Source: Raja brachyura (Eukaryota). From it: DNA of 64,000 bases. Below, piece after piece: positions 8,452 through 62,552 of the stretch (within the stretch, counting starts at the first letter, position 1; every line of letters starts with the position of its first letter). Location: positions 53,506,001 to 53,570,000 of the forward strand of contig OY740783.1 in NCBI GenBank assembly GCA_963514005.1, in the 5' to 3' direction. Both the position numbers and the translations under genes were made by a program. The notes under the pieces are model-generated. The model searched no databases. It saw only the letters and a program-made list of their open reading frames with translations, and had not been told where the DNA came from.

Positions 8452-8485
8452 GGTCTGAAGAAGGGTCCCGACCCGAAACGTCGCC
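8452..8485 (+). ncRNA. Minimal hammerhead ribozyme motif in a Penelope-derived repeat (~8450-8575), ALDH1A3 intron 1, antisense to the gene
   Basis: ggt-CTGAAGA-A-GGGT(cccg)ACCC-GAAA-CGTC-gcc: catalytic boxes, stem II, palindromic ACGT stem III, GUC triplet and a 3 bp stem I. Confidence 0.65.
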
Positions 8486-9091
8486 TGCCCATCTCTCCAC
8501 CGTTGCTGCCTGGCCCACTGAGTTTCTCCAGCACTTTGTGTTTTGCTTAAGTTTCCAGCATCATCAGTTTCTCGTGTCGCTCTACTTTCTAATGTTTATT
8601 TTGTGTTAAAGATCGTGGCAAATTGAAGGGAGCTTTGACCCCGTAATCCCAAAATATCAATTTGAGAAGAGGGGCGGGGAAGAATTGATGCCCCGATAGA
8701 CCTACTGTCTGCCCTTTAGTGTCTGGGCAGGTGGCTCCCATACGCGTCCGGCGAGGTAGCTGATCAGGCGCAAGTCAGGACTTTCACCTAGTGCTTTTCT
8801 TTCCCAATCAGAAAATGTAATTGAAAACAACTTCAATATTAACCACCCTGACTCCCCCCCCCCCCCCCCCTCCCCTCCCGATCACGCCAATGAAATGCAA
8901 AAAGGAAAAGCTATGAGCCCGATATAATTTGTGAGGGCTCTTTTTCCACGTTAAGAACAGGTTTAAAGTGCATGGAGTTGGATTTCATTGAGGTTACAAT
9001 GGAAGAGAGGGGTAACTCGGCGCTCGGGAGTTGCTCATGGCCGGGAAGTTGTAGAAGTATGGAGAGTGTGGAGTGAAATGACCGCACTCAC

Positions 9092-9184
9092 CTTTGTGTG
9101 TCTGATTTCCAACTCAGCCAACGGCACGGGCGCACTAAGTGGACCTGGCGCTGTAGCTTCGCGGGCGGCTGTAGGAGCACTCAT
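9092..9184 (-). CDS. ALDH1A3: Aldehyde dehydrogenase 1 family (retinaldehyde dehydrogenase, most likely ALDH1A3), coding exon 1
   Basis: ATG at 9184-9182 in context gcaacATGa (A at -3). Encodes MSAPTAAREATAPGPLSAPVPLAELEIRHTK (31 codons), then a phase-0 donor AAG|gtgagt at 9091. This matches the ALDH1A exon 1 ending (human ALDH1A3 ...LEVKFTK). CpG-rich surroundings. Confidence 0.88.
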
Positions 9185-9520
9185 GTTGCGCTGGTTCGCT
9201 TGTGTTCCTGGAGTGGTACAGTTCAGGTTCAGGCACAATCAAGCTCTCCAAATAATATTCTCTCCCCCCCCCCCCCCCACCCCTTCCAAAAAATAAAACC
9301 CGAAATATTTGCAGTACTTTCCTGCTCTTGCTGTCAGTCGCAAGGTGTTGAAACAGAGTTATTAAACACTGGGAACATTCGTTGGAAGCGATTGGCTGAA
9401 AGTGCGATACAATACATGGTGCGTCCAAAGGGCAAGTCCACACCCCTCATCAGCGCCACATAGAACAAGCCAAGTCACGGCTGCTTGAAACAACATTCAT
9501 GATCTTTCCAATCAGTACTT
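9185..9520 (-). promoter_or_regulatory. Putative 5' UTR and core promoter of ALDH1A3
   Basis: Minus-strand TATA-like TTTAATAA at 9366-9359 and CCAAT box (cagccaatcg) at 9395-9391. A second CCAAT lies on the plus strand near 9508. CpG is retained across ~7950-9480. Confidence 0.6.
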
Positions 9521-12126
9521 GGAACGTGAGGTTCCAACATGTGATGGTAACATATTTTGTTGCAACAACCTATTATTCAAGTAATCCTGTAAGGTCTATA
9601 CAAGATATTTGAGAGCTAAATACTTTAGCAGTTGGTTATAATACAAAATCTAAATTAAATTCGCTAAATGTACTTATAAAATGGTAAACATAGCGGTTTT
9701 TTTTAGCAATAGGCCAATTGATAGACGTCAATTAAAACCAGGATTCTAAGGGGAATGAAAGGCAGGTTTTCTTATAAAACGATTGTTAGAAACACACGCA
9801 CAAAAACCTTGCATATGCTGCAAATCTGAAACAAAAAAAACCCAGATAATGTTGACAGCACTCAACTGGTCTGGGAGCAGTTGGGCAAAAGGAAACAGTT
9901 AATGTTTCAGGTCCTGGCCCCTGCATCAGGCCCTGTATTTGTAGAGCACCTTTCACGAAAATGAAATGTCCATAATATTCTACATTCAATAGCATATCAT
10001 AGAAAACTAGTAACTCTTGTAATGTAGGAAACAAATGAACCAATAGTTATGCATCCCGGAATAATTGGTGATGTCATTGTGTATTAATAAACTACTGACC
10101 AATATATTAGTCATAGGAATGTAAGGTAAAGCATCCGAATTCACCATAGCACAAAGCTTGCACCTTTGATATGCAGTGAAGAGGATAATGGTTGATTGCA
10201 AGACCATTCTTGCAGGCAAGATGGTCATAAACCAGCAGTCAAATGTTAATACAGAGAAAGTGGGAACAGATAGATCATGGCAGACAGAATGCGAGATAAC
10301 GGAAAGTGACCACAACAATTCTGAGGAGTGTGAGACACGGAAAACATAGATGCCGATGCGGAAAAGTCCTTCAAAGTAACTTGGTTCATAAATGCAGACA
10401 GAAAGAACAAATGCAGCCTATGTGAACCTATTGGACCACAGGCGGAATTTCAGCCCCAAGGTTAGACTGAAAAAAAATGAGGCTATTCTCTTTGGAATAA
10501 ATATGGTTGAGATGAAATTCGAGAAATACATAAGATCATGACTGATTTAGAATGGGTAAAATAGAGGCAAGGTATTCCCATTAGTTCAACAAACTACAAG
10601 CATACACTTGAATTGTCAAGGTATAGAAGGCCACAGGGCAAGGGTAAATCAATATGGTTAGTATAGATACTCAGCATGCATATTTTGGGCTGAAAGGTCT
10701 GTTTCTCTTTTTGCAGAACTTTGGGACATAGAGGAACAGATGTAATATTCTGGATAAAATGTACAAGGCAGGTGTGAATAAAAACGTCTTTATACCAAGG
10801 TTATGACCTGTAGGGATTGTGGAAACAAAATCAGTAAGTGCTTTCAAAAGCACTTCAGGGATAATAATTTGTAGCGATATGGGTTTAGAGCAGGGAAATA
10901 TGACTGGCCGGAGTGCTCTATTAGGAATCTGTAAGGGACTCAATGGGTCAAATCATTTATTGTAGTGCTGTAATGATCCTGTAATTCTAAGATCCATTTG
11001 CACACATTAAGGTCATACAAACAGCATTGTGATAAAACTGGACAGTTTGTCATTTCAGTCATATTAAGAAGTAGTGCTCCTGACGTAAGATTTTATTTAA
11101 AAAGTATCTTGGATTGTTTTTCTATGCTAAAATTGTTTTATAATTTTGACATAGCACTATTTGTTGTTCTTGTTACTGCAATAACATGGCTCACTTGGTA
11201 CCTTACACTCTTGAAAATTATTTATCCTCTTTGCAAATTACATTTTTGGAATCCCCAAGTGTCAGCATAGATTTTGATCTTGTCTCTGATTTGAAGATGA
11301 CAGTGGTACATACCATTAAGTCTAGAGTTCTCTGTGACCCCTGAGTGACTTCTATGCCATGTGAGAAAAGCTGACAAGGGTGTGGTTGGCAAGGGGGGAA
11401 TAGGAAAAGATAAACCCAATGAGGGCACCTCCTTCCAAAATGCATGGAGCATGGTCTTGACATGACTAGTAGCCTGTTTGGTTAGAGTGATAATCACAAA
11501 AACCTCCTGGCAGCCCTCCAGTCTAGTCACTGGCATCTGTTATATTACATGATTGACTGAGCAAAGTTCCACCCAGATGCAGGACAGAATGCCACAGGAG
11601 ATCCTTCTTTCCTGTGGCAATCAGACTTTACAACTCCTCTCCCTTCTGTCGTGGGGTAGACTGAGACTGACTCCCCTCCCCCACCCCTACCCAATCTTTG
11701 CACATCCCCCAAGCCTTTAATTACATGTTTCATGTATTTTGTGTTTATTCTATCATTGGCAGATCAATTTCCCTCCTGGGATAATATTCTATCATATCGT
11801 ATCGTATATCTAGGTCATGAAAGATACCTACGGTTATTAGAATGATCACTAACCATCAACAATATACCAAATCACTAGCAACACCAAAAACATACCTGCT
11901 GGAAAATCTATGTTGAACCCTGAAGAACTGTGCAAAGGCGGCTCTTTTCAATTTTAACTCAGCTAAGGAGTGCCATTGAGTGCCCACAGCATCTAGGCAG
12001 CCCTAAGGTCCACCACATATGGTGAAAATACAATTTATGAATTCTGAATATAATATATTTCATAATATGAAAAGGGTATTTCCACAAATAAAACCAGGAC
12101 TGATTTGATGAGAATTAACAGGAAGG

Positions 12127-12440
12127 TACAGTGGAGCAGCAGTAGAGTTTCTGCCTTACGGCGCTTGCAGCTCCTGAGACCCGAGTTAAATCCCAACTAA
12201 GGGTGCTGTCTGTACGGAGTTTGTATGATCTCCCCGTGACCTGCATGGGTTTTCTCTGAGACCTTCAGTTTCCTCCCACACTCCAAAGACGTACAGGTAT
12301 GTAGGTAAATTGGCTTGGTATAAGTGTAAATTATCCCTGGTGTGTGTAGGATTGTGTTAATGTGCACGGATCGCTGATCGGCGCGGACTCGGTGGGCCAA
12401 AGGGACTGCTTCCGTGCTGTATCTCTAAACTAAACTAAAC
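12127..12440 (+). mobile_element. V-SINE (HE1-like)
   Basis: tRNA head, V core and (aaact)n tail. Confidence 0.85.
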
Positions 12441-12611
12441 AGGAGATTGAGAAGATAATCAACCACAAATGCAGATTTTTCCTGTATTGGAAACTACCAA
12501 ATCAAGATTCAAGATTCAAGAGAATTTATTGTCTTGTGTCCCAGATAGGACAATGAAATTCTTGCTTTGGAAAGACCAAGGGAAAGAACGCAGAATATAG
12601 AAAGTACTACA

Positions 12612-12955
12612 ATTCACAAAGTACTGGAATAATTCAATAGGTCAGACAGCATCTCTGGAGGACATGGATAGGCAACGTTTCAGGTCAGGACCCTTCTTCA
12701 GACTGATTGCAGTGTTGAGAGGGGTTGGAGAAAGCTGGAAAAGTGGTGGAATGGGATGAAGTTTGGCAAGGGATACAGGTGAGAGGAGTTTTGATTGACA
12801 GATGGGTGGACAAAGGCTAGAACTTAAAAAAGGATGTAAGGTACCCAAGTGGAATAGATGTCCCACTATTTTCCAGCATTCTCCTCCCTACTACAATCTG
12901 AAAAAGGTCCCAATCTTCCCATGTTCTTCAGAGATGCTGTCTTAATTGGCGAGTT
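12612..12955. mobile_element. Penelope pseudo-LTR-derived foldback element with hammerhead motif
   Basis: aacgtttcaggtcaggacccttcttcagac at ~12674-12703, with a degenerate inverted copy at 12895-12955. Confidence 0.6.
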
Positions 12956-13950: not shown

Positions 13951-13979
13951 ATCTCATTGTAGAGCATTATGTCTAATTC

Positions 13980-15110: not shown

Positions 15111-15559
15111 TTAGAAATTTTATGCATTTCACATCCAATTTCATGCATTAATTAAATGACTTGTCCACGTAAGGAATTACAGGTGCTGGAATCTTGAGCA
15201 AAATACAAAGTGTTAGAGTAACTCAGCATGTTAGGCAGCATTGTGAGAGGAATCGACAGATGATGTTTCTGATTGGGACCCTTCTTCAGACTAATTGCAG
15301 TAGGAGGAGAGAAAGTTGGAAAATAATGGTGGGGGCAGGACAAAGTTTAGCAAGTGATAGGTGGATACACCTGAGAGGGATTGGACTGGCAGCAGGGAAC
15401 ATGTTCTGTTTTTGGCAGTGCTGAGTTCCAATCCCTGTGTTTTTATTTATGCCATGAATTTTTAAGTATTAATTCTTGGTTTCCCACAATTTTCCAAGGA
15501 TTCATGGACTAACATTTTCTTTATTTTAAACTACAAAAGAAGGTGGATAAAATCAAATG

Positions 15560-15819: not shown

Positions 15820-15852
<33 letters not shown>

Positions 15853-17954: not shown

Positions 17955-18880
17955 AGCTATTCCTCAGCAGATGAAGCCCATGCCGATGTGTCACAGGACT
18001 GAGACAATATTCAGACATGGGCTGATAAGAGGCAAATAACATTCCTGTTACAGAACTCCCATATAATGGCCATCTCCAATTAGAAAGCATCTAATGAACT
18101 GAAGGTCTCGACCCGAAATGTCACCCATTCCTTCTCTCCAGAGATGCTGCCTGACCCGCTGAGTTACTCCAACATTTTGTGTCTACCATCTAATTAACTA
18201 CCTTGGATATGCAACAACATTACACTTGCTGTGTCCCTCACCAACATTACTCATGCTACATCAACCACCATCAATATTCTTGGAGTCACCATTGGCAAGG
18301 AACTCAAATAGACCAGCCAAATAAAATACCGCAGCCACAGCACCGTCTAAATATTGTGTAGGAGCAGTGTTGACTGTCCCGCTGAGTTACTCCAGCATTT
18401 TGTGTGCACCTTTGAAGTCCAAAGATTGATTACCCCTGTGATGAGTGAATAAGGCACAAACAAGGTACAAACATAATGGAATGCCCTCCACTTGACCAGG
18501 AATGTCAACTCAAACACCACAAAAGAACCCATGCACGCCATCCTCCTGCCTGGAAATGTAATCACTCCACCACCAAAGGTTCCATTAGTGCTCTCCTTTT
18601 CCAAAATACTCTGACTTTACTTGTCTAGACTACTCTGACAGCATCTCCCAAGCTTCTAACCTCTACCACCTCAAATGACAAGCATAGCAGGGACATGGGA
18701 AGACCACCAGATGATGAATATATCCATAACAAATGTACATATGTTGCCCTGTGAATCACATGCTATTCTGATTGAAAGTACATTTAAAGCTTACATTTTA
18801 GAATTGCCTCCCCAAACACATTGTAAAGGTTGTAAAAGACTGCAATGGTCTCAGAAGGGCAATTAGAGAAGGTCAATAAA
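17955..18880 (+). mobile_element. Old CR1-group LINE fragment with nested Penelope-derived insertions
   Basis: Degenerate RT C-terminal motifs (gacatgggctgataag; aatattcttggagtcaccattg). Penelope-derived insert at ~18101-18187 with TSD catctaatgaact/catctaattaact. Confidence 0.55.
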
Positions 18881-19679: not shown

Positions 19680-19878
19680 GTGTAGGAATGAACTACAGAT
19701 GCTGGTTTACACCAAAGATAGACACAAAATGCTGGAATAACTCAGTGGGACCGGCAGCATCTCTGGAGAGAAGGAATGGGTAGCATTTTGGAAGGAATAG
19801 GGAAACATCACCCATTCCTTCTCTCCAGAGATGCTGCCTGTCCCATTGAGTTACTCCAGCATTTTGTGTCTATCTTCT
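19680..19878. mobile_element. Palindromic Penelope pseudo-LTR-derived insertion
   Basis: Inverted arms of ~70 bp (gacacaaaatgctgga..gaaggaatgggt / acccattccttc..gcattttgtgtc). TSD ccttgttgatt on both sides. Confidence 0.75.
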
Positions 19879-20459: not shown

Positions 20460-22700
20460 ATAACCATATAACCATATAACCATATAACAATTACAGCATG
20501 GAAACAGGCCCTCTTGGCCCTTCCAGTCCGTGCCGACCATTTATTTTCCCCTAGTCCCATCTACCTGCACTCAGACCATACTCCTCAATTCCCTTCCCGT
20601 CCATATACCTATCTACTTTACTTTTAAATGTTAAAATTGATCCTGCCTCCACCACTTCTGTTGGAAGCTCATTCCACACAGCCACCACTCTCTGAGTAAA
20701 GAAGTTCCCCCTCATGTTACCCCTAAACTTCTGTTCATTAATTCTCATGCTATGCCCTCTTGTTTGAATCTTCCCTACCCTCAATGGGAAAAGCTTATCC
20801 ACGTCTACTCTGTCTATCCCTTTCATCATTTTAAAGACCTCAATCAAATCCCCCCTTAACCTTCTGCGCTCCAAAGAATAAAGACCTAACTTGTTCAACC
20901 TTTCTCTGTAACTTAGTTGCTGGAACCCAGGCACCATTCTAGTAAATCTCCTCTGTACTCTCTCTATTTTGTTGACATCCTTCCTATAATTAGGTGACCA
21001 AAATTGTACACCATACTCCAGAATTGGTCTTACCAATGCTTTGTACAATTTTAACATTACTTCCCTACTCCTATATTCAATGGGTTACACAAAAAGCTGG
21101 AGAAACTCAGCGGGTGCAGCAGCATCTAAGGAGCGAAGGAGATAGGCGATGTTTTGGGTCGAGACCCTTCTTCAGACTGGTCAGGGATCAGGGAAACGAG
21201 AGATATAAACAGTGAGGTGGAGAGATAAAGAACAATGGATGAAAGATATGCAAAAAAGTATTGATGATAAAGGAAACAGGCCATTGTAAGCTGTTTGTGG
21301 TGTGAAAATGAGAAGCTAGTGCGACTGGGGTGGGGTGGGGGGGAGAGATGGAGAAGGAATGTCAGGGCCCGAGGGCTGAGGGAGAGGTGGGGAGGGGAGG
21401 GGGCAGTCTGGGTTAACAGAATTGAGAAAATTCAATGTTTAAGCCCTGAGGATGCAGACTCCCCAAGCGGAATATGAGGTGCTGTTCCTCCAACTTGCGG
21501 TGTTGCTCACTCTGGCCGTGGAGGAGGCCCAGGACCGAGAGGTCGGATACGGAATGGGAGGGGGAGTTGAAGTGCTGAGCCACCGGGAGGTCGGGTTGGT
21601 TATTGCGGACCGAGCGGAGGTGTTCGGCGAAACGATCGCCCAGCCTCCGCTTGGTCTCACCGATGTAGATCAGCTGGCATCTGGAGCAACGGATGCAGTA
21701 GATGAGGTTGGAGGAGGTACAGGTGAACCTCTGTCGGACTTGGAATGACTGCTTGGGTCCCTGAAAGGAGTGGATGGGGGAGGTGAAGGGACAAGTGTAG
21801 CATCTCTTGCGGTTGCAAGGGAAAGTGCCCGGGGAAGGAGTGGAGCGGGAGGGAAGGGAAGAATTGACAAGGGAGTTGCGGAGGGAGCGGTCTTTGCGGA
21901 AGGCAGACAAGGGGGGGGAGATGGGAAGATGTGGTGAGTGGAGGGGTCACGTTGGAGGTGGCGAAACTGGCGGAGGACTATCTGTTGTATGCGCTGGCTG
22001 GTGGGGTGAAAGGTGAGGACCAGGGGGATTCGGCCCTTGTTGTGAGTGGGGGAATGGGGAGAGAGGGCAGTGTTGCGGGGTATGGAGGAGACCCTGGTGC
22101 GAGCCTCATCTATAGTGGGGGAGGGGAAACCCCGTTCTCTGTAGAACGAGGACATTTGTGATGTCCTATATTCAATGCTCTGATTTATAAATGCCAGCAC
22201 ACCAAAAGCTTTCTTTATCACCCTATCTACATGCGATTCCACCTTCAGGGAGCTATGCACAGTTATTCCTAGTTCCCTCTGTTCCACAGCAGTCCTCAAA
22301 TTCCCTTCCATTTACCATGTACGTCCTATTTTGATTTGTCCTGCCAAGATGTAGCACTTCACACTTATCAGCATTAAACTCCATCTGCCATCTTTCAGCC
22401 CACTTTTCCAAATGGCCCAAATCTCTCTGTAGATTTTGAAAATCTACTTCATTATCCACAACATCACCTATCTTAGTATCATCTGCATACTTACTTATCC
22501 AATTTTCCACCCCATCATCCAGATCATTGATGTACATGACAAACAACAGTGGAACCAACACAGATCCCTGAGGCACCCCACTGGTCACCGGCTTCCAACT
22601 TGCCAAACAGCCATCCACCATTACTCTCTGACATCTCCCATTTAGCCACTGTTGAATCCATCTTGCTACTCCGCCATTAACACCCAAAGATTGAACATAA
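20460..22700 (-). mobile_element. CR1 LINE (RT C-terminal half) split by a Penelope insertion
   Basis: SGVPQGSVL..YINDLD..KYADDTK in ORF 22253-22918; LYKALVRPILEY..TRGH..WNELP in ORF 20551-21057; (tatggtta)n tail. Confidence 0.92.
21083..22163 (-). mobile_element. 5'-truncated Penelope-like retroelement (GIY-YIG endonuclease plus pseudo-LTR)
   Basis: ORF 21413-21910 has C..C, NLIYCIRC..IYIGET.RRL.DRF.EH..VAQHFN..GLN. Exact 14 bp TSD tcctatattcaatg at 21069-82 and 22164-77. Decayed hammerhead at 21148-21175. Confidence 0.92.
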
Positions 22701-22849
22701 CTTGGAAAATTTCCAAATGACCAGGAGTGGAATACAATTAAGTTTGAGATCAGCATATTTTTGGACTTTGAGAGGCAAGAGGCTTGAAGATCAGGTGAGA
22801 ACATAGACATGAAGCAGAAGATCAGCCATGACATTATTAGACAATAGAG

Positions 22850-23253: not shown

Positions 23254-23294
<41 letters not shown>

Positions 23295-24489: not shown

Positions 24490-24614
24490 GGTTACACAAA
24501 AAGCTGGAGAAACTCAGCGGGTGCAGCAGCACCTAAGAAGCGAAGGAGATAGGCGACGTTTCGGGTCGAGACCCTTCTTCAGACTGGTCAGGGATCAGGG
24601 AAACGAGAGATATT
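24490..24614 (-). mobile_element. Solo Penelope pseudo-LTR with intact hammerhead motif (24555-24582)
   Basis: Minus strand reads CTGAAGA-A-GGGT(ctcg)ACCC-GAAACGTC. It interrupts CR1 at tcggtgg|..|ggtggtgggg. Confidence 0.8.
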
Positions 24615-32334: not shown

Positions 32335-33290
32335 AGGTAGATGAAAATGCTGGAGAAACTCAGCGGGTGCGGCAGCATCTATGGAGCGAAGGAAATAGGC
32401 AACGCTTCGGGTCGAAACCCTTCTTCAGACTGATGTGAGGGTGGGTGGGGCAGGTGGAAGAAAGGAAGAGGTGGTGCCAGAGGGCTGAGGGAGAGCTGAG
32501 AAGGGGAGGAGAAAGTAAGGGCTACCTGAAATTAGAGAAGTCAATGTTCATACTGCTGGGGTGCAAACTGCCCAAGCAAAATATGAGGTGCTGCTCCTCC
32601 AATTTATGGTGGTCCTCACTCTGGCCATGGAGAGGGCCCAGGACAGAAAGGTGAGATTCCAAATGGGAGGGGGAGTTGAAGTGCTGAGCCACCGGGAGAT
32701 CAGGTTGGTTATTGCGAACCGAGCGGAGGTGTTCGGCAAAGCGATCACCGATGTAGAGCAACTGACATCTAGAGCAGCGGATGCAATAGATGAGGTTGGA
32801 GGAGGTGCAGGTGAACCTCTGCCGCACCGGGAAAGACTGCTTGGGTCCCCTTGAGTCAAGGGGGGAGGTAAAGCGACAAGTGTAGCATTTTTTGCGGTTG
32901 CAAGGGAAAGTGCCCAGAGAGGGGGTGGTTCGGGTGGGAGGGACAAATTGACCAGGGAGTTACGGAGGGAGCGGTCTCTGCGGAAAGCAGACAAGGAAGG
33001 AGATGGAAAGATGTGGGAAGTGGTGGGATCATGTTGGAAGTGGCGAAAATGTCGGAGGATTATTTGTTGTATGTGATAGCTGGTAGGGTGGAAGGTGAGG
33101 GCAAGGGGGACTCTGCTCTTGTTACGAGTAGGGGGATGAGGAGTGAGAGCAGAGTCACGGGGTATATAAGAGACCCTGGTGAGAGTCTCATCTACGGTAG
33201 AAGAGGGGAACCCCCGTTCCCTGAAGAATGAGGACATCTCCGATGCCCCTGTGTGGAACACCTCGTCCTGGGTGCAGATGCAGCGTAGAT
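32335..33290 (-). mobile_element. 5'-truncated Penelope-like element (GIY-YIG), second copy
   Basis: FTCTSSNLIYCIRCSRCQLLYIG..FAEH..VAQHFN with a small deletion. Pseudo-LTR with hammerhead motif at ~32401-32428. Confidence 0.9.
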
Positions 33291-33599
33291 GGTGTAGAGT
33301 TAGGACGATGTCTTTAGCACAGTTTCTACATTGGTTTTTGGCAAGTAAGGAATCTTGGTAGGAATAGAGTGACGGTGACAAATTTAAATAATTAACTAAC
33401 TTAAATGAATATTTTAAGGCAGACATAATGGTTAGATGACTTGTTATGGCTGGTCCTGTCTGATGGAAACAGTTGAAATCTTCTGCAATCACATTGGCAG
33501 TTAATGCTTGCAGCTTGAGTAACATTGGCTCAGGGTTGATAAGTTTGAATCTGGGATTCAGACACAGCAATGTATCAGAGAGGGGGATATATTTGTTTC

Positions 33600-35670: not shown

Positions 35671-38600
35671 GTGATGGGATGGTTGCAGTCATTATCACCA
35701 GTTGATATTTCTCGTCATTGAAGTCAATGGAGGACAACATTACTGAGGCATCTGATGGTAATATCAACACTCCGTTCTGTCCTGTTGGTTAACGGCAAGC
35801 TGGGTTAGGCTAACGTGACCCCTTGATCTGGTACATAACACCCATATCACTTTTGTTGCTTTTTAATATCTGGGAATCTAACCACAAACGTCTATAGAAT
35901 AAAGCTACATCAATCAGCCCTCAGAGGACGAAATTTACTGAGTGGACATCAATGTAAAAATAGGGAATAAATAGTAATCCCATTAAATGTTAGATTTGAT
36001 AATCGACACACAATGACACCGTACATATTCTTTCAATCTCGTTAAAATATGAAGAAAAAATCCTGTAATACCCACATTTTATATTCGGTAGCTATTTGGC
36101 TTTGGTATGCAAACATTTATATATTGAGCACCATTGTTCTGCGTATAAAGCAAGTGATCCGTCCCTTGCCCCGATCAAAGTCACATAGACATTTGTTTCA
36201 TCCAACAGCGAAGGTTCCCTTGCAGATTCCTCTACACTTTTAGATTTGATGACAAAACGTTGTCATAACTTTCCACCATATTAGAAAATGTCGAGATTTA
36301 CAAATGCACTCACCAGGGTAATACGTATTTGACAATTTAAAAAAATGGTTCAAAAAAGCACAAAGTTGCGGAATCTTGCAACGCGTGGATAATTGAAAGC
36401 GGCTGAGACCACACACTCGCCTTAAAATTGGAGCTAGTATTGAACATTTGGTTCAAGTAGTTTAATTATAGCACATCACCTTTCTCAGTTAAAACATTAT
36501 TACGCTCGCAAGACTGATTGCCTAATTTTAAAACGTACATGATTTTGTTCAATGATCGCAGGCGATTCCAATTAATAATTGGCGGTTTAGATAGTAGAAC
36601 GGAAAATAAAGGCCCCCCACATCATGTATTTTAGGCGTGACCTTTTATTTCAGTATCAGTGCAAGCCTTCGTTGTGTCTTTCTACAGGTCATATTTTATG
36701 TGGATTCTGAAGTCTAAAGTCGCCTGAAAGGATGGGAAACAAGAAGGCATAATTTACTATCATATATATTGGAATAGAAAAAAAACCCAAGGGTAATGAA
36801 GGAATATTTAAGAATTAAAATGTCTTTACAGTTTGTATTCTATCAACCGTAGTTCTATAAGAAAACGCTATTCATTATTTCAGTATTTCAAAATCGGTAC
36901 CTTGAATGATCGTGATGGTAGGTTATGGAGACTCAAATACAAAAACTAAATATCACTCCGAAATTGCAGCAACGATTATATAATAGACGACATCCTTTTA
37001 TGTGTACATTCATACGATAATAAAGTAACCGCCTTCCTACCTGTGGGATATTTTCCCTCTGAATAGTTCAGTAGAATAGCATACCATTTTTAGTGTAAGT
37101 GCCCGGTATACATGCTTATTAAGTTCGGACAGAGCCTAATGATGTTTCACTTGATAGCTAATGCCATAATGGTCGGTTTTTCCAAGTCACCGGGAACAGA
37201 AATGGGTGCTTTAGTCTTTGTATTCAACTATTTGCCAAAGAAGATAGACGCAAAATGCTGGAGTAACTCAACGGGTCAAGCAACATCTCTGGAGGAAAGG
37301 AATATGTGACGCTTCGGGTCGAAACACTTCTTCAGATTCATGTCCTAAGTTTAGTAATGAGCATCGTGTGTGTGTGTGGCATAAATGAATAATCTCTTTG
37401 ATAGTAGAGGAATCTTTCTCTTCATCAGACAAGCATACTATGATATTCTTCTAACCTTCAGGTCCTGAAGCATTTACTCTTTTTTCACAGATGCTGGACC
37501 TTACGCATTTTCAGCGTTGGTTCCCCACTATTGTAATAATTTGTTTGGTAATCTCGCCAACTCTTCTAAATGTGCACAAGCACACGTGTTCGAATTCACC
37601 TTTACCAACAGAAGATCAAACGCTCTTCCACTATTTCTTACTGTCAACATTAAAATATTGTTTATCTTAAAGATAATCTTTGCACACACAATCCTAAACT
37701 AAGAAGTAGAACCAAGAAATCGGCAGTTGCTGGTTTACAAAAAAAAACAGTCCCGACCCGAAACGTCACCTATCCATCTTCTCCCGTGATGTTGCCTGGC
37801 CCGCGGAGTTACTCCAGCACTTTGTGCCTTTTTAGAAAACGTCCTAACTGACTCCGTTTTCTTTCGATGGTCCCGACCCACACTTAAAAACTTAATGAAA
37901 ATATAGATCTTTGAAAAAAATCACGAAAAGGCAAACCATGGAATGGGAACACGAGGCAACGTAAAGCAAAGAGGACTGATCTGTTGAATTGTACCTACGC
38001 AATCGCTGATTTAAAGTTTCACGTTTGTGCATAACACAACAACAGGAGGATTGATTCTTATCTCAAGCGACCGGCCCAGATGGTACAATGTCGGATGGAG
38101 GGACATAAGCGCTGGATGGCCAGCTCTTGGAATGCACTTTTGTTTAGTTCATGAAGTGCTAACTTTCTTTCACGAGGATCGCAATACTTTGGTTTAGTCA
38201 TGTGTTATATTTAAACGTGTAAATTAGAATACTGATCCTTACTCAAGATGGACACAAAAAGCTGGAGTAACTAAGTGGATCAGGCACTGATCTCTGGAGA
38301 GAAGGAATGGTAGACGTTTCGGGTGGAGACCCTTCTTGGCTGATCCTTACAACTTTAGCGATTTACAAATATCACAATTAAAGTATATATCTAAGGAATA
38401 CAATAAGTGATTTAGCTTAGTTTGTGAGGTAACTGGAAAGACAAATTGAAATATGAATACATTTCCAATCTAGAAATTAGATTGTAGATCATCTTACTTC
38501 GAAGACATGGGGTTTGGTGAAGAATTTGGTAAAACACTCATTTAACCAGTTGTATTCCTTTTGCCTCTCATTTTTTCCATCCATTTAATTTCGGCTCCAG

Positions 38601-51537: not shown

Positions 51538-51719
51538 ATCCATATTCATGACCACTCAGAATTCAACACGTTCATTCAATTAGCTTCTTAGCCTTTGAAA
51601 CTCGAGAAGACACAAACCTAGCCTATCTATCCCTCACATTTCCTTCCTTCCCACACATTCCAGGTATTGGTCAATTGAACAATCACTGAATTGCATCAAA
51701 CTAATTTACATCCTCATGG

Positions 51720-51930
51720 AGAAACAAGGAACTGTAAGTGCTGATTTACAAAAGAAAGACACAAAATGCTGGAGTAACTCAGCAGGTCAAGAGAACATGG
51801 ATAGGTTATCATTTTGGGTCAGGACCCTTCTTCAGACTGGAAAAGGGCCCGGACCAGAAACATCACATCCACATTCGCCAATAACGCTGCCTGAGCCGCT
51901 GAGTGACTCCAGGACTTTGTGTCTTTTTTT
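51720..51930. mobile_element. Foldback Penelope pseudo-LTR-derived insertion
   Basis: Inverted arms around a cccttcttcagac..gaaacatc core. TSD acatcctcatg / acatcctcgtg. Confidence 0.7.
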
Positions 51931-53614
51931 CACATCCTCGTGAAGCGTTGTTCACCAAACAGTAATACCAACTGTCAGCAGGCTAGAGTGAGTGCTTCAA
52001 ATTCAGGGGAAGTTAAGTTAGAATGAAAGATTATGTGCTAATAAAATGACAAAGAGGGCAGAGGAAGATGCCTGGCTGAAATGAAAAAAGCCCAAACTGA
52101 TTAATCATTTTCAAACTGATTCCTGGCAGGTGTCAGAGACTTAAAGGCAAACATTTCTTGGCAAAGCTTGAGAACTCACTGTACCATATCCACTTCACAC
52201 CGGACCTAAGTGACCTGATCACGGATTCTTTGTCTGGAATTTATAGATACAGTCTAAAATAAGTGAAATTCAGGCTCGAATGCCAACCCACAATCAGAAT
52301 AAGCTGTTTGGTGAACAAAACATCATGAGGATGTAAAGAAAAGATCCAAAGTTCTGGAGTAACTCTACAGTAATGTATCTAGTGTGATATAGGTTGTCTT
52401 TTTGATTTAACAGCAACTTTTGCAATTTGATATTGCCCTATGTTTTTTTCAGGGTTAACAGGGGCAATTAAATTAATAAGTTAATCACTGCCAAAGGTTT
52501 GATCGATTATTGACCTGTTGTGAATGAAAGAGGCAATTGTGACGATTTTGATCCTTATAATAAACAGTAATTTTTTTAATTACTTATGGGATGGAAGGGC
52601 TTGTTGGTGGTTTGTGAAAATCACATGCTCTGAAAATTACTGCTGTCTGCTGATAACGATTAAGTTTGATGATCAGATAATGTTATAGAGTTGCTCGGTA
52701 AAAACAACAGTTTTCTCACTGTTCTTATAGTCTGAATTTGCAGGACTTTGGATAATTGCTTAATTTCTTGCCAAACAGCTTTCTCCTCTCCTGAAATACC
52801 ATTATTCTGCTCATTTTCTTCACAGTTGTGAGAGCTTATTGCTTTTGGCGATGTTGTTGATAGTTGCACTCACTATGATGATATTCCTCACCTCTCACAG
52901 ACACTAACATGGTTCTCACTCAGATCTTAACCCGCCCCCTCATCCCAAGTGAAACATTGTTGCTTTTCATCTCCTCAAAGAGACAGCAGTACTGATCCTT
53001 TCTCACAAAACACAAAGGTTTTCTCTTGCTATGTCTCTCTCTCACACACACGTATATTGAATATTTGTCCCCTCTCTCACACAGGGAACCTAACGCTATT
53101 ACCTTTCCCACACTGTTTCCTCTTACGGAAGACAATGAGCTTCAAACATTGTCTCTTGGAGGTCAATTATATTACGTTCATGTTGCTTAAAATGCAAGAT
53201 GTGGGAAAAAGAGTAAAATGGCAATCACATTTTAATGTAAAATATTATACGTGTCAAGATGCAGAAAACATACTTATGTTTCAAAGTATACCGTTACGTC
53301 AGTGGGCTAGATTTGATTGAAATTAATAGTCATATCTGAATGATGCTTTTCTTGTTAATATGCAGACCCGTCAACAATGTATGGTGAGGATATAATACCC
53401 GATGGTCCAAATTGATACAAGATGTTCTCAGTTTCTGCCACTTTAGCAGAGCCAATGTATTAATCTCCCCTTGATTTTCATGCTTGTAAATATCAAGTTG
53501 TTTTATATTTATTTCCCTTTAAATGTGTAATTGAATTAGTACTGTGAGTTAGACAGCATTTCTGGAGGACATGGACAGGTGATGTTTCGGATTGAGACCC
53601 ATCTTCGAACAAAG

Positions 53615-54175
53615 TTAAAGAAGGAACTGCAGATGCTGGAGAATCGAGGGTTACACAAAAAGCTGGAGAAACTCAGCGGGTGCAGCAGCATCTAAGGAGC
53701 GAAGGAGATAGGCGACGTTTCGGGTCGAGACCCTTCTTCAGACTGGTCAGGGATCAGGGAAACGAGAGATATAAACAGTGATGTGGAGAGATAAGGAACA
53801 ATGAGTGAAAGATATGCAAAAAAGTATTGGTGACAAAGGAAGCAGGCCATTGTAAGCTGTTTGTGGTGTGAAAATGAGAAGCTAGTGCGACTGGGGGGGG
53901 GGGGGGGGGAGGGGAGATGGAGAAGGAATGTCAGGGCCAGAGGGGTGACAAAGGAAGCAGGCCATTGTAAGCTGTTTGTGGTGTGAAAATGAGAAGCTAG
54001 TGCGACGGTGGGGGGGGGGGGGGGGGGGGGGGGGAGATGGAGAAGGAATGTCAGGGCCAGAGGGGTGACAAAGGAAGCAGGCCATTGTAAGGTGACAAAG
54101 GAAGCAGGCCATTGTAAGGTGACAAAGGAAGCAGGCCATTGTAAGGTGACAAAGGAAGCAGGCCATTGTAAGGTG
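53615..54175 (-). mobile_element. Young Penelope pseudo-LTR with intact hammerhead (53714-53741) and internal tandem duplications
   Basis: Nearly identical to 21083-21370. A ~115-120 bp duplication and the 27 bp unit ggtgacaaaggaagcaggccattgtaa (at least 4 copies) run into the gap. Confidence 0.85.
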
Positions 54176-54375: not shown

Positions 54376-57069
54376 TTTTTATTCAACATTGTTTCCTTAC
54401 TTGTTATTTCCAAAGATTTTCCCACTGCCACCCTTTTCCTGTTTCTTATCTCTATCTCTCCTACTATTTACATTTTAGATTGCATTCATCCACTCTAATG
54501 TAGTCTTAGTTCATAAGCTGTAGGAGTAGAGTTAGGCCATTTGATCCATCATGTCTACTCCACCATTCAATCGTGGCTGATCTATCTTTCCCTCTCAACC
54601 CCATTTCCTGCCTTCCCCCCATATCCCCTGACACCCGTACTAATCAAGAATTTGTTCATCTCTGCCTTATGTCTCTGCATTGACTTAGCCTCCACAGCCT
54701 CCACAGCTAAAGTCTTCTTAGCTTTTCGCCCATATGGTCAACATAACAACAAATGACTGCAGATGCTGGAAATCTTAAATTAAAACAAAGGTTGGAAGCA
54801 CTGAGCAGGTCAGGCAGTATTGAGGAAGTGAGAAGCAGGGTTAACTAGTGGCATCATGCTTGTCGGGCTTCGTTCTTACTCTCTTGTGTGAACCCTCTGA
54901 CTGTTCTAACATTATGCTACCCACAGTTGTTAAGATCCTGCCAGTGTCACTGTCTCAGTTGCTCCATAATGGGGACTGAGCCATAAGCATGGGCCATAGG
55001 CTACAGAAAGTAAAGCCTTTCCCATAGTCCACCCTGATTCTTAGAAATGTTTGGAAATATTAAACAAAGTCTTTAAATAATTAAAAAAATAAAGTTATAT
55101 AAAAGACAAATTGCTGTTATTAATTAAGAAAAACAAAAGAAAACAGAAGCAGGAGTAAGCCACTCAGCCCTACAATCCACCCCTGCCATTCCACCTGATC
55201 ATGGCAAACTGCCCCGGGCTTTATGTCCCCCTTTGTATCAGTTCCCATGGCCTTCAATCTTTCCAAAATGTATCTCCTTCATCTTTGTGATTTAGCCTTT
55301 ACAATCCTCTGGGGAAAGAATTCCAAAGATTCATCACCCTCTACAAGAGGAAGTTTCTATGCATCTCAGTTTTAAATGACGGGCCCTCATCTTCATGTCG
55401 TCACCTTCAAAGTTCTCCTACTTGTGGAAGCGTCTCAACATCTCAACATTTTATTTGCTCTATTTTGCGTGTCCTGACTGGAGTGGCAAATTGCAAAACA
55501 GCTGCTGTGATTAAGGTATAAAAAAGTATGGATTGAAAAAAAGCCTTTTCTTTCCATTGTCTTCATTTCAGAATAATGACAATCATTTTGCTTCTCCATT
55601 GTCACACAGAGTCAATAATTCAAATGTGGGTGTTCAAGTGCCACAATTACATGTTTCGACAAAGGGCTTTCAATCTTTCCACATTCCTTGGCTTGCCAAT
55701 TCATTTTGATCTTGATGATGTTTCCTATAAAGAGAATAGCACTTTCTCAATACCTTTATAAATATTATATGTTTGAATTAAGAATTTATGGAAGGTTTCT
55801 GTTGTATCAGAAAATTATTACCTTATTAAAATTAGGCCTGAATTTTGTTCAAACAACAACAACAGTTTTGTTAAGGTAGGCTTCATAGAAGAACTCCTTG
55901 TTCTTACTGTTATATTGTTTAATGAACAAAATGTTTCTGGATGTTGCTGCATTATGTCATAATTGGCACAAGAAGTACACCAAAGAATGCTGCAAACTGG
56001 ATATTTGACTTTTTTTCTATTCGCTCGGAGAGGAATTTCAAAATATCTCATGTTGAATATGGCAGCGCAAAGTTTCATGCTGTAAAATTCTGGAAGAACA
56101 TACAGCTTCATATTGAGCATTACGGTTGGCAACAAGATCAGGGCCCATATACTTATTTTCATAACATTCTTACACCTATAATAGGAAACATTTAAAAATT
56201 ATAAGTGCGTGCAAACCTCAACTTTCAACTCCCTAACCCCTGCAATGTCACAATGAGAATAGCTGGTGAGCAGCTTTAATAGATGCATTTAACGACGCTC
56301 TTACTAGTATTAAGGAAAACCCGTAAATCTATCTGTTATGTCAGAATTCAAAAGCTGATCCATCACTTTACTCTCTCCCCATGCACTTGCATGTTGCTGA
56401 CTTAATTAGTGATCTACTCCCATTGCATATTCCTCTGATTTAAATATTGATCTACCCTTATTATACAAAGGTAGAACTAGCAATGGAAACTGAGCATCTT
56501 GAGTATGTTCCTCCATTCAACAGTTATTAGTGTGCATACTTGGTCCCTGAATACTTTGCTCCTCAACAGCATTGAACTTTTCATGATTTAGAGAATATTT
56601 CTTTTTTCCTGGGATCTAGAGAATCTCGCTTCTCCTACATTAAACTTGAAACAGCTTTGCCTACTTACATAGTTAACTTCTGGTCATATCTGATTTGCAA
56701 TGATTCCCACCTTAGTGCCAACTCAAATGTCACCATATTGCCTTCTTTCCAGTTAATGGTAAAAACTTGAAGAGTTCCAGTACATATCATGGAGTCACTG
56801 CCCCCTGCCTTATACTACCGGCTATCCTCACTCCCTGTTAAAGCATTACTAAAATCATTATATAATTAAAACATTCTATCCTCATCAACTTCATCCAATC
56901 AATTTCCACACCATGCCTAAAAATATGTCCATAAAATCATGGAACTATAGAAAATATTCAATACATGCAGAAGGTATTTGGTCCATCATCTCAATGCCAG
57001 CCTAATCTTGCTTCCCAGCGATTGTACTCCTGAAAGTCATGGCTCTTCAAGTACATATGGCTTCAAGGC

Positions 57070-58144: not shown

Positions 58145-58565
58145 AAGTCAGGATTGTTTTATTATCATATGTCCCGGATCGGACAAGGAAATTCTTACTT
58201 GCTGCATCACAACAGAATATGTGAATATGCAAACATAGTACGTAACGGGGGAAGAGACAAAAAGTTCAATAATTAACAAATATAGTGCAGTAATAATATA
58301 GTCTTTTGCAGTTTAGAGCTCAGAGCTTATTTGTTGTTGTGTTTAATAGCTTGTTGGCTGTAGGGAAGAAGTTGTTCCTGAACCTGGACGTTACAGTTTT
58401 CAGGCTCCTGTACCTTCTTCCCGATGGCAATGGTGAAATGAGTGTGTGGCCAGGATCGTGTGGGTCTTTGATGATTTTGGCTGCCTTTTTGAGGCAGTGA
58501 CTACGATAGATCCCTTCGACGGTGGGGAAGTCAAAGCCGGTGATGCACTGGGCAGTGATCACAAC
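58145..58565 (-). mobile_element. Rex/Babar LINE 3' end nested in a CR1 3' end (~57820-58630)
   Basis: CLKKAAKIIKDPHDPGHTLISPLPSGRRYRSLKTVTSRFRNNFFPTA. Confidence 0.85.
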
Positions 58566-59971
58566 CCTTTTGTAATTTATCATGGGCTGAATGGCCTGTT
58601 CCTGTGCTGTACTGTTTTATGTTCTATCAATCGACTATGTTGATATTGAACATTATTTCTTACCGATAATGATCAGGAATTATCTTGGAGATGCGTTATG
58701 CCATTTACTTAATTACTGTAACTGATGGAAGGGTGCTTAGAACTGTCCTTTGAATCCTAGCCATGGAAGAACAATGTGCTTCATTGCAATTTGCCGACAA
58801 TGCTTAAATAAATAATCCCTTTACATTTAATGAAAGCAATGTGTTTTATGGTCATAATGGCCAGTTGGATGCCATGTGTTAAAATAAATAACGTCACAGC
58901 TTTGAAATATGTTTACAGCAAAGAAGGCATCAGTAAACATTGAATCATTTTAAAGATTTGGCAATCAAAATTATATCAAAACTGATAGAGGAAGACAGAG
59001 TTTGAAGTGGTGTCTGAATTGGCATTCGCTGAATCCTTTCACTCTAGTGTGTTAAAATCTGGTCACATATTGTGCTTTGATCTCCTTATGCCACTGTGTT
59101 ATTAATGCTCTGCTTTGGTAGTTGATAGTAAATAGTCTCTTTTTTTCTACCATGGTTTGTACTGGATGTACTGTGATTTTCCCATGTTCTAGCAACCTCT
59201 GTTAAAGTAGTCTCATTTTGTGATTTTGTTTACCTTGGAATGGGATGTTAACCATCGTGAAGGCTATTGTTGGGAAGTCGCTTTGTAAATTATCTGGGGG
59301 AGAAATGTTTCCCTCCAAGGTTGCTTGTAATCTAGAACATCTGGTAGGTAATTGAGGCTCTAGCCCTTTGACTAAGAACCGACATCTGGGAATGCTTCAA
59401 AGGTCTTACTGAAGTCCACATCAACTACATATGACTAGGAAATTGTTGTGAAGGTAAACACAATTCCTATGGTTTTTCCAAAATGTTGTTGCCAAAGATG
59501 ACTGGTTATTTGGAATTGCAAATAAGAGGCAGAGAGACAGCAGACCATCAAGAAAAGTGGTAGGGTTTATTAAAATAGCTTGTATTGGAGAAAGGAAGAA
59601 CTTCAAAGTGAACTTACCTTTTATAGGCTTATAGGCACGTAAGGAAGTTTCCAAATTTTATTAAAATTTTAAATATCTATTTATCACAAAAAATCTGATT
59701 AATGTTCACCAATGAAAATTGCAATTGGTTCAGTGCAATATATCTTTCTCATTTTCAATGATTTCAAGTGAACAAAGTGGAGCAGGAGAACCAGGTGTTC
59801 AAAACTACTTCATTTGCAAGAAACCAGTTTTCAACAGCTTTAATAAAGATCCTTTAGTTTACAAATTTTAAATACATCATTTATTATTTTGATGCAAGGA
59901 AGTAAGATTTAGGTTTATTATTATTATTATTATGTGTACCAAGATACCATGAAATTTTTTTACGGTTGTGC

Positions 59972-60360
59972 TGGGGTCGGAGATTACAACCTTCACGTGG
60001 TCCACCCTGTTTCGATTAATGCAATCAACTCGACGTGCACAAACAAATAGATCAAATAGAACAAGTTGACCTACAACTTTAGGCTGTGCACACCATATGC
60101 AAGAATAAGATCTTATATCTGAACACAATCAGGCAAAATACAAATACAACCGGTAGATCGAATAGAAAAATACCATATTGCAAAATATAGCTTCTCAGCA
60201 TAGTAGCATAACAGTTACAGAGAGGGGTGGAAGATTGCTACCTTCACGTGGTTCGCCCTGTTTCGACTAATGCAATCAACTCGACGTGCACAAACGGAAG
60301 ATCAAATAGAACAAGTTGTCCAACAACTTTAGGCTGTGCACGCCACACGAAAGAAGAAGT
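59972..60360 (+). repeat. Two copies of a ~135 bp SINE-like element (~59972-60110 and ~60222-60358)
   Basis: Shared ccttcacgtggt..ccctgtttcga.taatgcaatcaactcgacgtgcacaaac..aactttaggctgtgcac, ending in an AAG-rich tail. Confidence 0.8.
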
Positions 60361-62552
60361 TCCAGAGAAAACATTCCATATCTTCAATGAGGTAGGTTGG
60401 AAAAATAAGAACAGCATTCCACCTAATGTAAGGACTGTTCAGAAGTCTGACAACAGAGAGGAAGAAGCTGTTCCTGACTCAGATGTTTTCAAGCTTTTGT
60501 AATTTCTGCTCGACGGGAGTGGGGAGAAGAAGCAATGACCAGGACGGCAAAGGTCCTAGATTATGTTGGCTGCCTTCCTGAGGCAACGTGAAGTATAGAT
60601 TGAGTCAATGGTGGGGAGTCTAGTTTGTGTGAGTTATCAAGGTTTCATGTCCTAACTGATTGCACTGGTTTTGTGGTTGCTTTTGTGTTTTTTTAATGGA
60701 AAATTAATCCAAAACTTCCAATTAGAGCAATCTCTGATAAATGGGGAAAAAAACTCATATTTGCTTACTATTATTCATTGCATGGGACAAGGTAATGGCA
60801 AATGTAACTCTCCTCTAAATATTCAGTTGGATTAAATACAATCGAAACAAAAATGCGCTAACGGACAATACTGTACTGATCTGGCCAATACTTTTCATTC
60901 TAACCTATTTCACTCAGGCTCATACCAATTTAAAAAATAAATTAAAATATCATGGTCTGAATTTTTTTATTTATTCAAAATTACTGGAATTAAAATAGCT
61001 TTGGAATTGGCTATATAGTCAGTGGGAACAATTGCATGTGATGATTGAAATCTAAAAAAATTGAAAGATTAAAGTTGCAGAAGAAGTACATTCCGTACTA
61101 TTTGTGAACTATGAAGGTGATGAGTTCCAATTTCGTGAATTGGCTGCAGTATCTGTTCACAAAATGGGCGACAGAAATATAAAACATATAAGGCCTCTAG
61201 GCTATGTTGACTGTTTCCCTTTCCATGGGCATGAGATTGTTTGGAAAGCAAAACAATCTAATGAAAGCTGAGGGAAGAGGAGAGCAATTATTGTCAAAAT
61301 TATAATGTCAATGCCGACTACTCATGCAATTAGTAACATCTCCCGGCAGTAGCTTCACTTCCCTCCACATAAAAAGATGCATTTCAGCATCAAAAGAATA
61401 CTACCTGCAGAGTATAACATGATAACATGGGACTGCAGATGCTGGCTTAAAAAATATATATACAAAGTTCTGGGGTAACTCAGTGGTTCAGGCAGTATCG
61501 CCGGAGAACATGGACAGGGTCAGGGTCGGGACACATTTTCGTTTCAGTTCAGAACCCTTCTTCTGAAGAAGTGACCTGACCTAAAATGCCACCTATCCAT
61601 GTTCTTCAGGGATGCTGCCTGATCTGCTGAGTTATTCCAGAACTTTGTGTTTTAATTTTAATTGTTGTTTTCAGGGAAGCTTTCTGGTCTGTGTTCAACT
61701 TTTCATTGGCAAAGTGATAATTTATGAAAATGCAAAATTATTTGTTTTGAAATATTGCACAATTTTACATGTTATGTTTGATGTCATTATGTTTATACTA
61801 TAATTTCAAATATTATCCAGAAATCTTCTTGATTGATGTTTCCCCCTTTGCACTCGTCGGTCAAGATATTAGATCATGTGGCATTTGTCGTGTACTTGAG
61901 CAGAAAGCACTGAAGATCATTTTCACTTTAAATTGTGGCAGATTTAAAGCTGGACCGGGCACTTCTATGCACTATTGATGTTATTGTGTCGGATATTTTC
62001 CCAGTGTAAGGTTTGCATCAAGTGATGTCATCACACTTGTAATGCCCAATTTTAACTGTAGAACACTGTTTCCTTTATCATCCATTATTTATTTTGCATA
62101 TCTTTTATTCATTGTTCTTTATCTCTCTACATCATCGTCTACATCTTCTACGTACCCTATCCTGGGCTTTAGGCTCTTCATATCTGAAGCTGATGGGCTA
62201 CCTGGCCCCTCCAGCACATTGGACCTCGCTCCTGACTTGCGGTTCATTGTCAAAATGCTCATCTCCACAGCTAACAAAGTGTGTGTTACACTGCAGTGGC
62301 TGCTGCAGTAACAGAGATAGAGATAGAAACAGAGACAGTAACCAGAGATAGATAGGTTTTTGATTAGTACATGTGTCCGAGGTTATGGGGAGAAGATTCA
62401 AGAGAGTTTATTGTCATGTGTCCCTGATAGGACAATGAAATTCTTGCTTTGCTTCAGCACAACAGAACATAGTAGGCAATGACTACAGAACAGATCAGTG
62501 TGTCCATATACCATTATATAAATATACACACACGAATAAATAAACTGATAAA

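Follow-up and report, generated by a model that had tools for sequence, protein, structure and literature searches.

Short hammerhead-bearing inserts are dispersed through a 64-kb window of Raja brachyura DNA (the whole 64,000-nucleotide stretch analysed here), and they are most probably 5′-truncated, dead-on-arrival products of the retrotransposition of endonuclease-bearing Penelope-like elements (PLEs). The motif that they carry is the known minimal type I hammerhead of PLEs, here in a cartilaginous fish.

A pattern search of the window with CTGAAGAAGGGT-N4-ACCCGAAACGTC returned exact matches at 8455-8482(+), 24555-24582(-) and 53714-53741(-), the same three copies that the first-pass annotation had called intact. 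With up to three mismatches, there were 10 matches against 0.00 expected from 100 shuffles. We also built a profile from 15 window copies, which recovered 29 hammerhead-module arms at E<0.01 when searched over the window (34 rows at E<10, of which 15 were the seeds themselves); in 10 block shuffles, the top score of the same profile was only 5.0 bits. The motif is real, and none of the 29 arms is a chance match. Together they make up about 24 loci in 64 kb, more than the roughly 15 recurrences initially reported, and every position given for these does hold a copy. Several of the reported variants turned out to be halves of head-to-head fold-back insertions. The features are as follows, with 5′ ends counted from where the hammerhead core starts:

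8292..8582 (unstranded): head-to-head fold-back; inverted arm 8336-8418(-), spacer of ~35 nt, long-tailed direct arm 8450-8582(+); the 14-bp TSD is weak (2 mismatches)
8455..8482 (+): intact minimal hammerhead, stem I of 3 bp
9820..9930 (-): old degenerate module, long tail
12614..12955 (unstranded): subfamily C fold-back; direct arm ~12614-12858(-) with hammerhead 12674-12701 and an endonuclease C-terminal remnant near 12831-12860; inverted arm ~12862-12955(+)
15165..15440 (-): long-tailed subfamily C copy that includes ~105 nt of pyrimidine-rich pLTR; degenerate inverted arm by eye
18101..18186 (+): subfamily B stub, 5′ end within the core (+2 to +5), 13-bp TSD (1 mismatch)
18365..18409 (+): very short, hammerhead-less stub, 5′ end at ~+48
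19680..19878 (unstranded): subfamily B fold-back, arms starting at ~+18 and +20, one of them long-tailed and the other short-tailed; perfect 11-bp TSD
21083..22163 (-): 5′-truncated PLE, A1, inside a LINE RT region, in the order RT end, GIY-YIG, pLTR, mutated hammerhead 21148-21175, short tail; 14-bp TSD
21413..21946 (-): GIY-YIG endonuclease frame, PF01541 match, elasmobranch PLE homology
24492..24611 (-): A1 stub whose hammerhead (24555-24582) is intact; the 31 upstream nt are identical to the 21175 pLTR; weak 9-bp TSD
32337..33307 (-): 5′-truncated PLE, A2, frameshifted endonuclease, mutated hammerhead 32401-32428, 10-bp TSD (1 mismatch)
35135..35220 (+): degenerate stub
37241..37336 (-): B-like stub starting at the core, no TSD found
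37715..37832 (+): inverted tail, then direct arm from ~+9
38243..38339 (-): subfamily B stub, 5′ end at ~0, perfect 11-bp TSD
43133..43235 (-): subfamily B stub, ~12 unrelated nt, then core from +3; perfect 11-bp TSD
47620..47730 (-): subfamily C stub, 5′ end at -4 to -16, weak 10-bp TSD
48226..48354 (+): A2 stub with long tail, 5′ end at -2, 16-bp TSD (1 mismatch), 93% identical to the 32428 module
51719..51931 (unstranded): fold-back whose arms meet in a CAG-T-CTG micro-palindrome located at the core start; 11-bp TSD, weak
53545..53609 (-): C-type module of greater age, immediately following the 53741 long tail and probably the sequence into which 53741 inserted
53612..54175 (-): A1 pLTR with intact hammerhead 53714-53741 and long tail; internal 120-bp and 27-bp tandem repeats; extends into an assembly gap
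54750..54830 (-): degenerate stub without hammerhead, long tail
61440..61655 (unstranded): fold-back with its junction at the core start
63900..64000 (-): module that the end of the window cuts off

The window hammerheads contain both core boxes, the G10.1-C11.1 pair, an extra base between positions 9 and 10.1 and a palindromic 15.2-16.2 segment (ACGU) without loop 3, with a stem I of 2-3 bp and a stem II of 4 bp. The extra A and the short stem I had raised initial doubts about activity, and both are published features of PLE hammerheads, as is the ACGU palindrome (Cervera and De la Pena 2014, PMC4209133). That paper also gives the CUGANGA core, the unpaired base, G10.1-C11.1, the missing loop 3 and, for several listed species, a stem I of 2-3 bp, with mostly dispersed single or opposite-strand copies that it reads as probable truncated PLEs. 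In contrast, its searchable supplement has no chondrichthyan entry, stem II here is only 4 bp, and the parts consulted do not describe 5′ ends gathering near the start of the core, as reported below. Rfam searches gave no hammerhead family among 15 matches, all of them under gathering scores and mostly hairpin artefacts, and a motif scan of metagenome contigs gave 0 matches.

When the window copies were aligned with invertebrate relatives, 89.6% of stem cells paired, compared with 5-49% in slid controls. Stem I pair 2 is G-C in the window and C-G in the relatives, and stem II pair 4 is U-A in the window and C-G in the relatives, each a compensatory swap. This covariation amounts to about one lineage-versus-lineage event per pair rather than many independent changes; the stem II covariation proposed as a check thus appears between lineages but not within the window copies. 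RNAalifold on 20 window arms gave no consensus structure, and single-strand folds were not significant (z from -1.5 to +1.1). For 53741 and 24582, the double-hammerhead fold was computed at -6.7 kcal/mol, whereas the best dimer reached -19.7; the figures for 8455 were -14.1 and -25.6 kcal/mol. The stem II probability in monomers was ~0.01. By these folding energies, the hammerhead fold is predicted to be disfavoured in naked RNA. Base pairing between the core and the long-tail end was predicted for A1 only and was not borne out across subfamilies, and trans-cleavage at a GUC overlapping the core start was ruled out by inspection, stem I and III pairing being absent.

At 21175(-) and 32428(-), the module is found 3′ of a GIY-YIG coding region that runs on the same strand. 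This arrangement had been noted for two coding copies, but neither is an intact coding element: both are 5′-truncated stubs (~1.08 and 0.97 kb), frameshifted, without RT core and with mutated hammerhead boxes. The frame at 21413-21946(-) matched PF01541 with E=1.4e-4 and 22.5 bits, just below the cut-off of 22.6, and its closest proteins were elasmobranch PLE ORFs at 60-66% identity. Whereas the homologs P0010 and P0023 have an RT plus the matching endonuclease region, the window copies are cut before the RT core. The C-type copy at 12701 matches the endonuclease C-terminus with a score of 38, reached by 2 of 3158 window segments. Among 80 relatives at 40-53% identity, 45 had the endonuclease end and enough downstream DNA to be usable, and in 36 of these the same hammerhead follows 98-163 nt 3′ of the endonuclease end; the relatives' motif also appears in PMC4209133, under Acropora digitifera. 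No relatives were found in viral contigs. An ATG at +48..+51 (13 of 19 arms) was dropped as a candidate ORF start because it is absent from the relatives.

The 3′ ends of the copies fall into two classes ~35-40 nt apart, corresponding to the two PLE ‘tail’ positions, and seven loci are head-to-head fold-backs in which typically just one arm is tailed, as Craig 2021 (PMC8557442) depicts for PLEs. The invertebrate relatives likewise show two 3′-end classes and solo fold-backs. TSDs of 11-16 bp stand above chance at 18099, 19784, 38340, 43226 and 48228 (scores 10-13; among 150 random positions, 11 scored at least 10), and a perfect 14-bp TSD flanks 21175. The initial description of short inserts with their own TSDs therefore holds strongly at six loci, but not throughout: scores at 8455, 24582, 32428, 47714 and 51835 are within the chance range, the one point in their favour being that they abut a known 3′ end, and no TSD was found at 35135, 37335, 37740, 18365, 15289 or 61563. 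What looked like a TSD at 12701 is spurious, being in fact an inverted arm. Endonuclease linkage, tails and inverted arms together support the proposal of a Penelope-derived minimal type I hammerhead spread by PLE RT/endonuclease.

These features recur in the units that endonuclease-positive PLEs insert (Craig 2021, PMC8557442; Arkhipova 2013, PMC3846280) and in those of the Anolis Poseidon element PAc (Frangieh 2024, PMC11167929), which have a C-terminal GIY-YIG, strong 5′ truncation, an adjacent inverted copy, TSDs, palindromes at inverted junctions and an optional 30-40 bp tail from two internal RT start sites, which the tail marks in PAc. Unlike endonuclease-positive PLEs (PMC8557442, PMC3846280), the window holds no full-length element and no full-length or partial-tandem ORF, and whereas the PAc ORF begins at stem II (PMC11167929), the window family has no AUG in the core. 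Going by PLE biochemistry, the PLE protein would nick the target and prime reverse transcription within its own RNA, presumably from one of two start sites ~90 or ~128 nt downstream of the core start. RT would mostly halt or turn back within ~100-130 nt, most commonly at the upstream edge of the hammerhead, to leave TSD-flanked stubs and head-to-head fold-backs. The minimal type I hammerhead, a motif conserved across the clade, would cut only as a dimer, probably with protein help, and its predicted cut site does not set the copy ends.

Cleavage-defined 5′ ends were ruled out, as 0 of 20 fell at the predicted cut site (+25..+31). Nor are the ends fully random, the pattern that had been expected of ordinary truncated insertions: the interval from -16 to +9 around the core start contains 11 of the 20 (scan p 0.015-0.022), a clustering for which simple truncation does not account. 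This count leaves out 53608 (probable insertion target) as well as 9921, 52369 and 64000 (decayed, duplicated or window-cut). Such clustering would also result if the template RNA started just upstream of the hammerhead, at a transcription start or a 3′ splice site at the stem I 5′ end, and the stubs were run-off cDNAs. Two sets of contig joints point the same way, with 7 of 14 (a set that omits the empty-site row) and 8 of 12 of the joints listed ending at 21173-21189, as do a YAG-ending pyrimidine tract directly before stem I in A1, A2 and C and the D. virilis Penelope intron, which ends at the helix I 5′ end. However, subfamily sequences diverge just upstream of the core, so that apparent joints are inflated there, and on TSD-supported copies alone the clustering has p = 0.03-0.20. 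TSD-bounded copies have no leader in common ahead of the core, and intron-type ends at the core-start site are absent from the 15 joints listed out of 300. In the relatives the AG is missing, and of their 24 secondary arms only 4 end there. The fold-back joints at 51836 and 61563 lie on micro-palindromes, which alone could explain them. We regard such an RNA start or splice site as rather doubtful.

The short copies comprise four subfamilies, A1, A2, B and C. Over the +20..+88 module, 24582 and 53741 are 94% and 97% identical to 21175 (A1), and 48228 is 93% identical to 32428 (A2); with C linked through the endonuclease remnant at 12701, A1, A2 and C are all tied to endonuclease-bearing sequence. 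For subfamily B, the window offers neither a coding nor a pLTR link: its five loci are all short, none with a pLTR upstream, and 84-91% alike to the nearest B neighbour. B could be a true non-autonomous, SINE-like element whose ~100-nt modules are self-transcribed and mobilised in trans by PLE protein, a reading with which the prominence of B-type sequence among contig loose ends in three runs is consistent. Rotifer pLTR sequences suffice for trans mobilisation, and non-autonomous PLE derivatives exist (PMC8557442). Against this, the 5′ ends of B vary (+2, about 0, +3, -1, +18/+20), a promoter or leader is not evident, and the coding-linked A1, A2 and C yield the same short forms. In one contig (X15 record 9), an A1-like pLTR is followed by a non-A1 downstream part, suggesting that modules of further types are likewise preceded by a pLTR. 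A SINE-like element of its own is an unlikely status for B. It is also unlikely that, in cartilaginous fish, PLE retrotransposition has a programmed stop at the hammerhead's upstream edge (an RNA start, a splice acceptor or a site of endonuclease resolution) that mass-produces a defined 100-130 nt hammerhead-plus-tail module, with B a self-propagating minimal SINE of PLEs. In X1, module depth was ~3-7x that of the adjacent pLTR, a ratio not read as copy number; X15 and X16 are putative RNA sets.

The first-pass annotation had suggested a separate non-autonomous, retrozyme-like family. In a non-LTR retrozyme system, tandem hammerhead repeats would be cut to monomers, circularised and reinserted. 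Metazoan non-LTR retrozymes (PMC7229834; bioRxiv 10.64898/2026.07.22.740005) are likewise non-coding, related to PLE pLTRs (their proposed origin) and equipped with a type I hammerhead, they have been reported from one chondrichthyan genome, and the 2026 preprint admits minimal hammerheads in them too. Retrozymes are, however, tandem repeats with a hammerhead per unit, expressed as circular RNA, and their canonical hammerhead has a helix III and loop contacts. The window copies, in contrast, occur scattered as stubs and fold-backs, and their hammerhead is of the minimal form. None of the 19 tandem-repeat rows of the window is a module array, and the one direct pair, 53741 then 53608, joins two different subfamilies, one of them truncated. 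The missing cut-site ends and the weak double-hammerhead fold and stem II argue in the same direction. Given several subfamilies, endonuclease linkage of A1, A2 and C, canonical PLE tails and inverted arms, a separate family is unsupported, and the retrozyme reading is highly improbable and largely refuted for the window copies.

One more PLE family with a known minimal hammerhead is ordinary in itself; literature searches turned up no shark or skate description, and the family may already stand in Dfam or Repbase. Its value is as material: how PLE RT ends and how inverted arms form is still unresolved after in vitro work on PAc, and as the copies are very dense (~24 loci per 64 kb), a genome-wide tally of 5′ junctions could test both. 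The entire module, including the tail, can be aligned between the cartilaginous fish and the invertebrate relatives, which points to an RNA element likely recognised by the PLE protein.

The hammerhead motif of the first-pass annotation is indeed recurrent, with exact matches at 8455(+), 24582(-) and 53741(-) and 10 matches with ≤3 mismatches in the window, where none was expected. Its number had been underestimated at about 15: a profile search of the window detected 29 arms (single copies of the terminal module of a Penelope-like element, PLE) at E<0.01, representing ~24 loci, with shuffled sequences reaching at most 5 bits. Every short-copy module continues after the hammerhead with pyrimidine-rich sequence and a small segment resembling a hairpin, then terminates at one of two alternative 3' ends, at ~+87 to +97 or +125 to +130 (first C of CTGA = 0; predicted cut = +28). 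These ends correspond to the 30-40 bp tail that PLEs optionally carry (Craig 2021, available text), which has been linked to two internal RT start sites (Frangieh 2024). Head-to-head fold-backs occur at seven loci (8455, 12701, 15289, 19784, 37740, 51836 and 61563), usually with the tail in one arm only; PLE inverted junctions are known to carry palindromes (Arkhipova 2013, available text). By eye, the spacer 8420-8450 between fold-back arms looks like the tail end of the element itself, reverse-complemented. Strong target-site duplications (TSDs) flank six loci and weak ones five; six more loci that were examined have none. A local inverted duplication involves arm 51837, whose 3' end with its flank (51901-51962) recurs in inverse orientation at 52304-52365, ~340 bp away, with 84% identity. 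Long inverted repeats around two PLE stubs (12165-13227 and 43016-43370) probably stem from the insertion of older repeats in opposing orientations.

The extra A and short stem I, which had raised doubts about activity, are both published features of PLE minimal hammerheads: in the available text of Cervera and De la Pena (2014), whose minimal type the window architecture equals, an unpaired base between positions 9 and 10.1 is conserved and stem I is 2 bp in Drosophila virilis, Culex and Oikopleura. Among 80 metagenome relatives of the endonuclease, 56 loci were examined (11 too short, 45 scorable), and in 36/45 a motif of this kind lay 98-163 nt downstream of the endonuclease, most commonly in the form printed there for Acropora digitifera. 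The whole module, tail included, is alignable between window and relatives, and the proposed covariation check revealed compensatory swaps between them in stems I and II; this supports selection on the hammerhead fold, with each swap a single lineage-level event. Judging from computed folding energies, the active fold would seldom form in naked RNA. This agrees with the poor activity that minimal hammerheads show in vitro (Cervera and De la Pena 2014, available text) and with the protein-assisted cleavage of the Anolis Poseidon PLE PAc, where cleavage is not needed for insertion in vitro (Frangieh 2024). For the window hammerheads, self-cleavage is a predicted function. Dimeric cleavage of PLE hammerheads is reportedly the subject of work by Lunse et al. 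In both lineages, window and relatives, an alternative hairpin could hide the cut-site GUC (CUGACG/CGUCAG in L004:4105 and other relatives, by inspection; CGAC/GUCG in A1, as at 53741), possibly as an off-state. Locus L049:2030(-) holds a hammerhead with canonical-like helices, including a 6-bp stem I and a palindromic helix III; it has no relation to the PLE module and is retrozyme-type by appearance.

The parent element is represented by two coding copies:
21083-22163, minus strand: coding PLE copy 21175 (subfamily A1), frameshifted, 5'-truncated before the RT core, hammerhead mutated
32337-33307, minus strand: coding PLE copy 32428 (subfamily A2), frameshifted, 5'-truncated before the RT core, hammerhead mutated

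The frame 21413-21946(-) matches GIY-YIG just below the Pfam cut-off (E=1.4e-4), and its top homologs, at 60-66%, come from whale shark, Mobula, Hypanus, Stegostoma and Chiloscyllium, which points to a cartilaginous fish as host. As both copies are 5'-truncated and 21083-22163 has a perfect 14-bp TSD, ordinary truncation occurs in this family. Copies 21175 and 24582 inserted into LINE RT fragments, which are numerous (20551-22924, 24765-27262, 27880-28338 and 46342-46935, PF00078 at two of these) and which we take to be CR1-like. A 260-aa frame at 29445-30227 had no Pfam match and is presumably similar to the zinc-knuckle C-terminus of L1/Tx1 ORF2.

When 19 arms were placed in a tree, they fell into four groups. 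A1 unites coding copy 21175 with 24582 and 53741 (94-97% identity), A2 unites coding copy 32428 with 48228 (93%), and C-type 12701 retains an endonuclease C-terminus remnant at its upstream boundary (equal score in 2/3158 null segments). Only B (18099, 19784, 38340, 43226 and perhaps 37335) lacks a coding link within the window, and its origin is one point of note. Non-LTR retrozymes are defined by tandem units (available text of preprint 10.64898/2026.07.22.740005 and PMC7229834), whereas no tandem array of the module was found within the window; the preprint includes one chondrichthyan genome. Together with the A1 and A2 groupings and the C remnant, the lack of arrays does not uphold the suggestion of a separate non-autonomous, retrozyme-like family. 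They are an abundant, real family of truncated PLE ends bearing a known minimal hammerhead; most PLE minimal motifs are likewise single or opposite-strand, probably truncated PLEs (Cervera and De la Pena 2014, available text). Upstream of the A1 module, at 53829-54175, tandem repeats lie within the terminal repeat (pLTR), one of 120 bp (x2.2) and one of 27 bp (x4.1). They continue into an N gap and are possibly a hammerhead-free minisatellite that arose from the pLTR. Beyond the gap, 54390-54465 has a weak inverted match to a C-type pLTR (1-3/300 shuffles as high), which suggests that A1 inserted into an older C-type fold-back. An A1-like pLTR fragment (62066-62146, 84%) has no hammerhead module behind it.

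The other point of note is a hot spot of junctions on the upstream side of the core. None of 20 scorable insertions had its 5' end at the predicted cut site, and 11 ended within -16 to +9; the random 5' ends expected of ordinary truncated insertions were thus not fully borne out. With a geometric truncation model as the null, fitted to the 17 events that lie downstream of -200, the scan gave p = 0.015 (n=17) to 0.022 (n=15), with interval width picked post hoc and non-TSD boundaries set by eye, and 0.03-0.20 for the nine TSD-supported events only. In public contigs compared with 21060-22200, joints fell at 21173-21189 in 7/14 (listed of 300) and 8/12 (listed of 219). Loose ends at 21179 showed low agreement and are confounded, because their consensus resembles the pLTRs of other subfamilies. 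Relatives showed little clustering near the core start (4/24 arms), and we found no description of such clustering in print.

Several causes could be considered. The cDNA might snap back at micro-palindromes, as are seen at the joints of 51836 and 61563, or the template might be lost on leaving a bound module. By analogy with D. virilis Penelope, an RNA start or splice acceptor might lie at stem I (Cervera and De la Pena 2014, available text, as model); no splice-type joint was present among the contig joints listed. Endonuclease resolution is a further candidate.

The window also contains four terminal-inverted-repeat elements with arms of 46-146 nt, probably MITE-type DNA transposons:
16944-17475: terminal-inverted-repeat element, GGCCTGTCCC-like end
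22983-23594: terminal-inverted-repeat element, GGCCTGTCCC-like end
48430-48744: terminal-inverted-repeat element, GGCCTGTCCC-like end
5199-5945: terminal-inverted-repeat element, the GGCCTGTCCC-like end being noted for the other three
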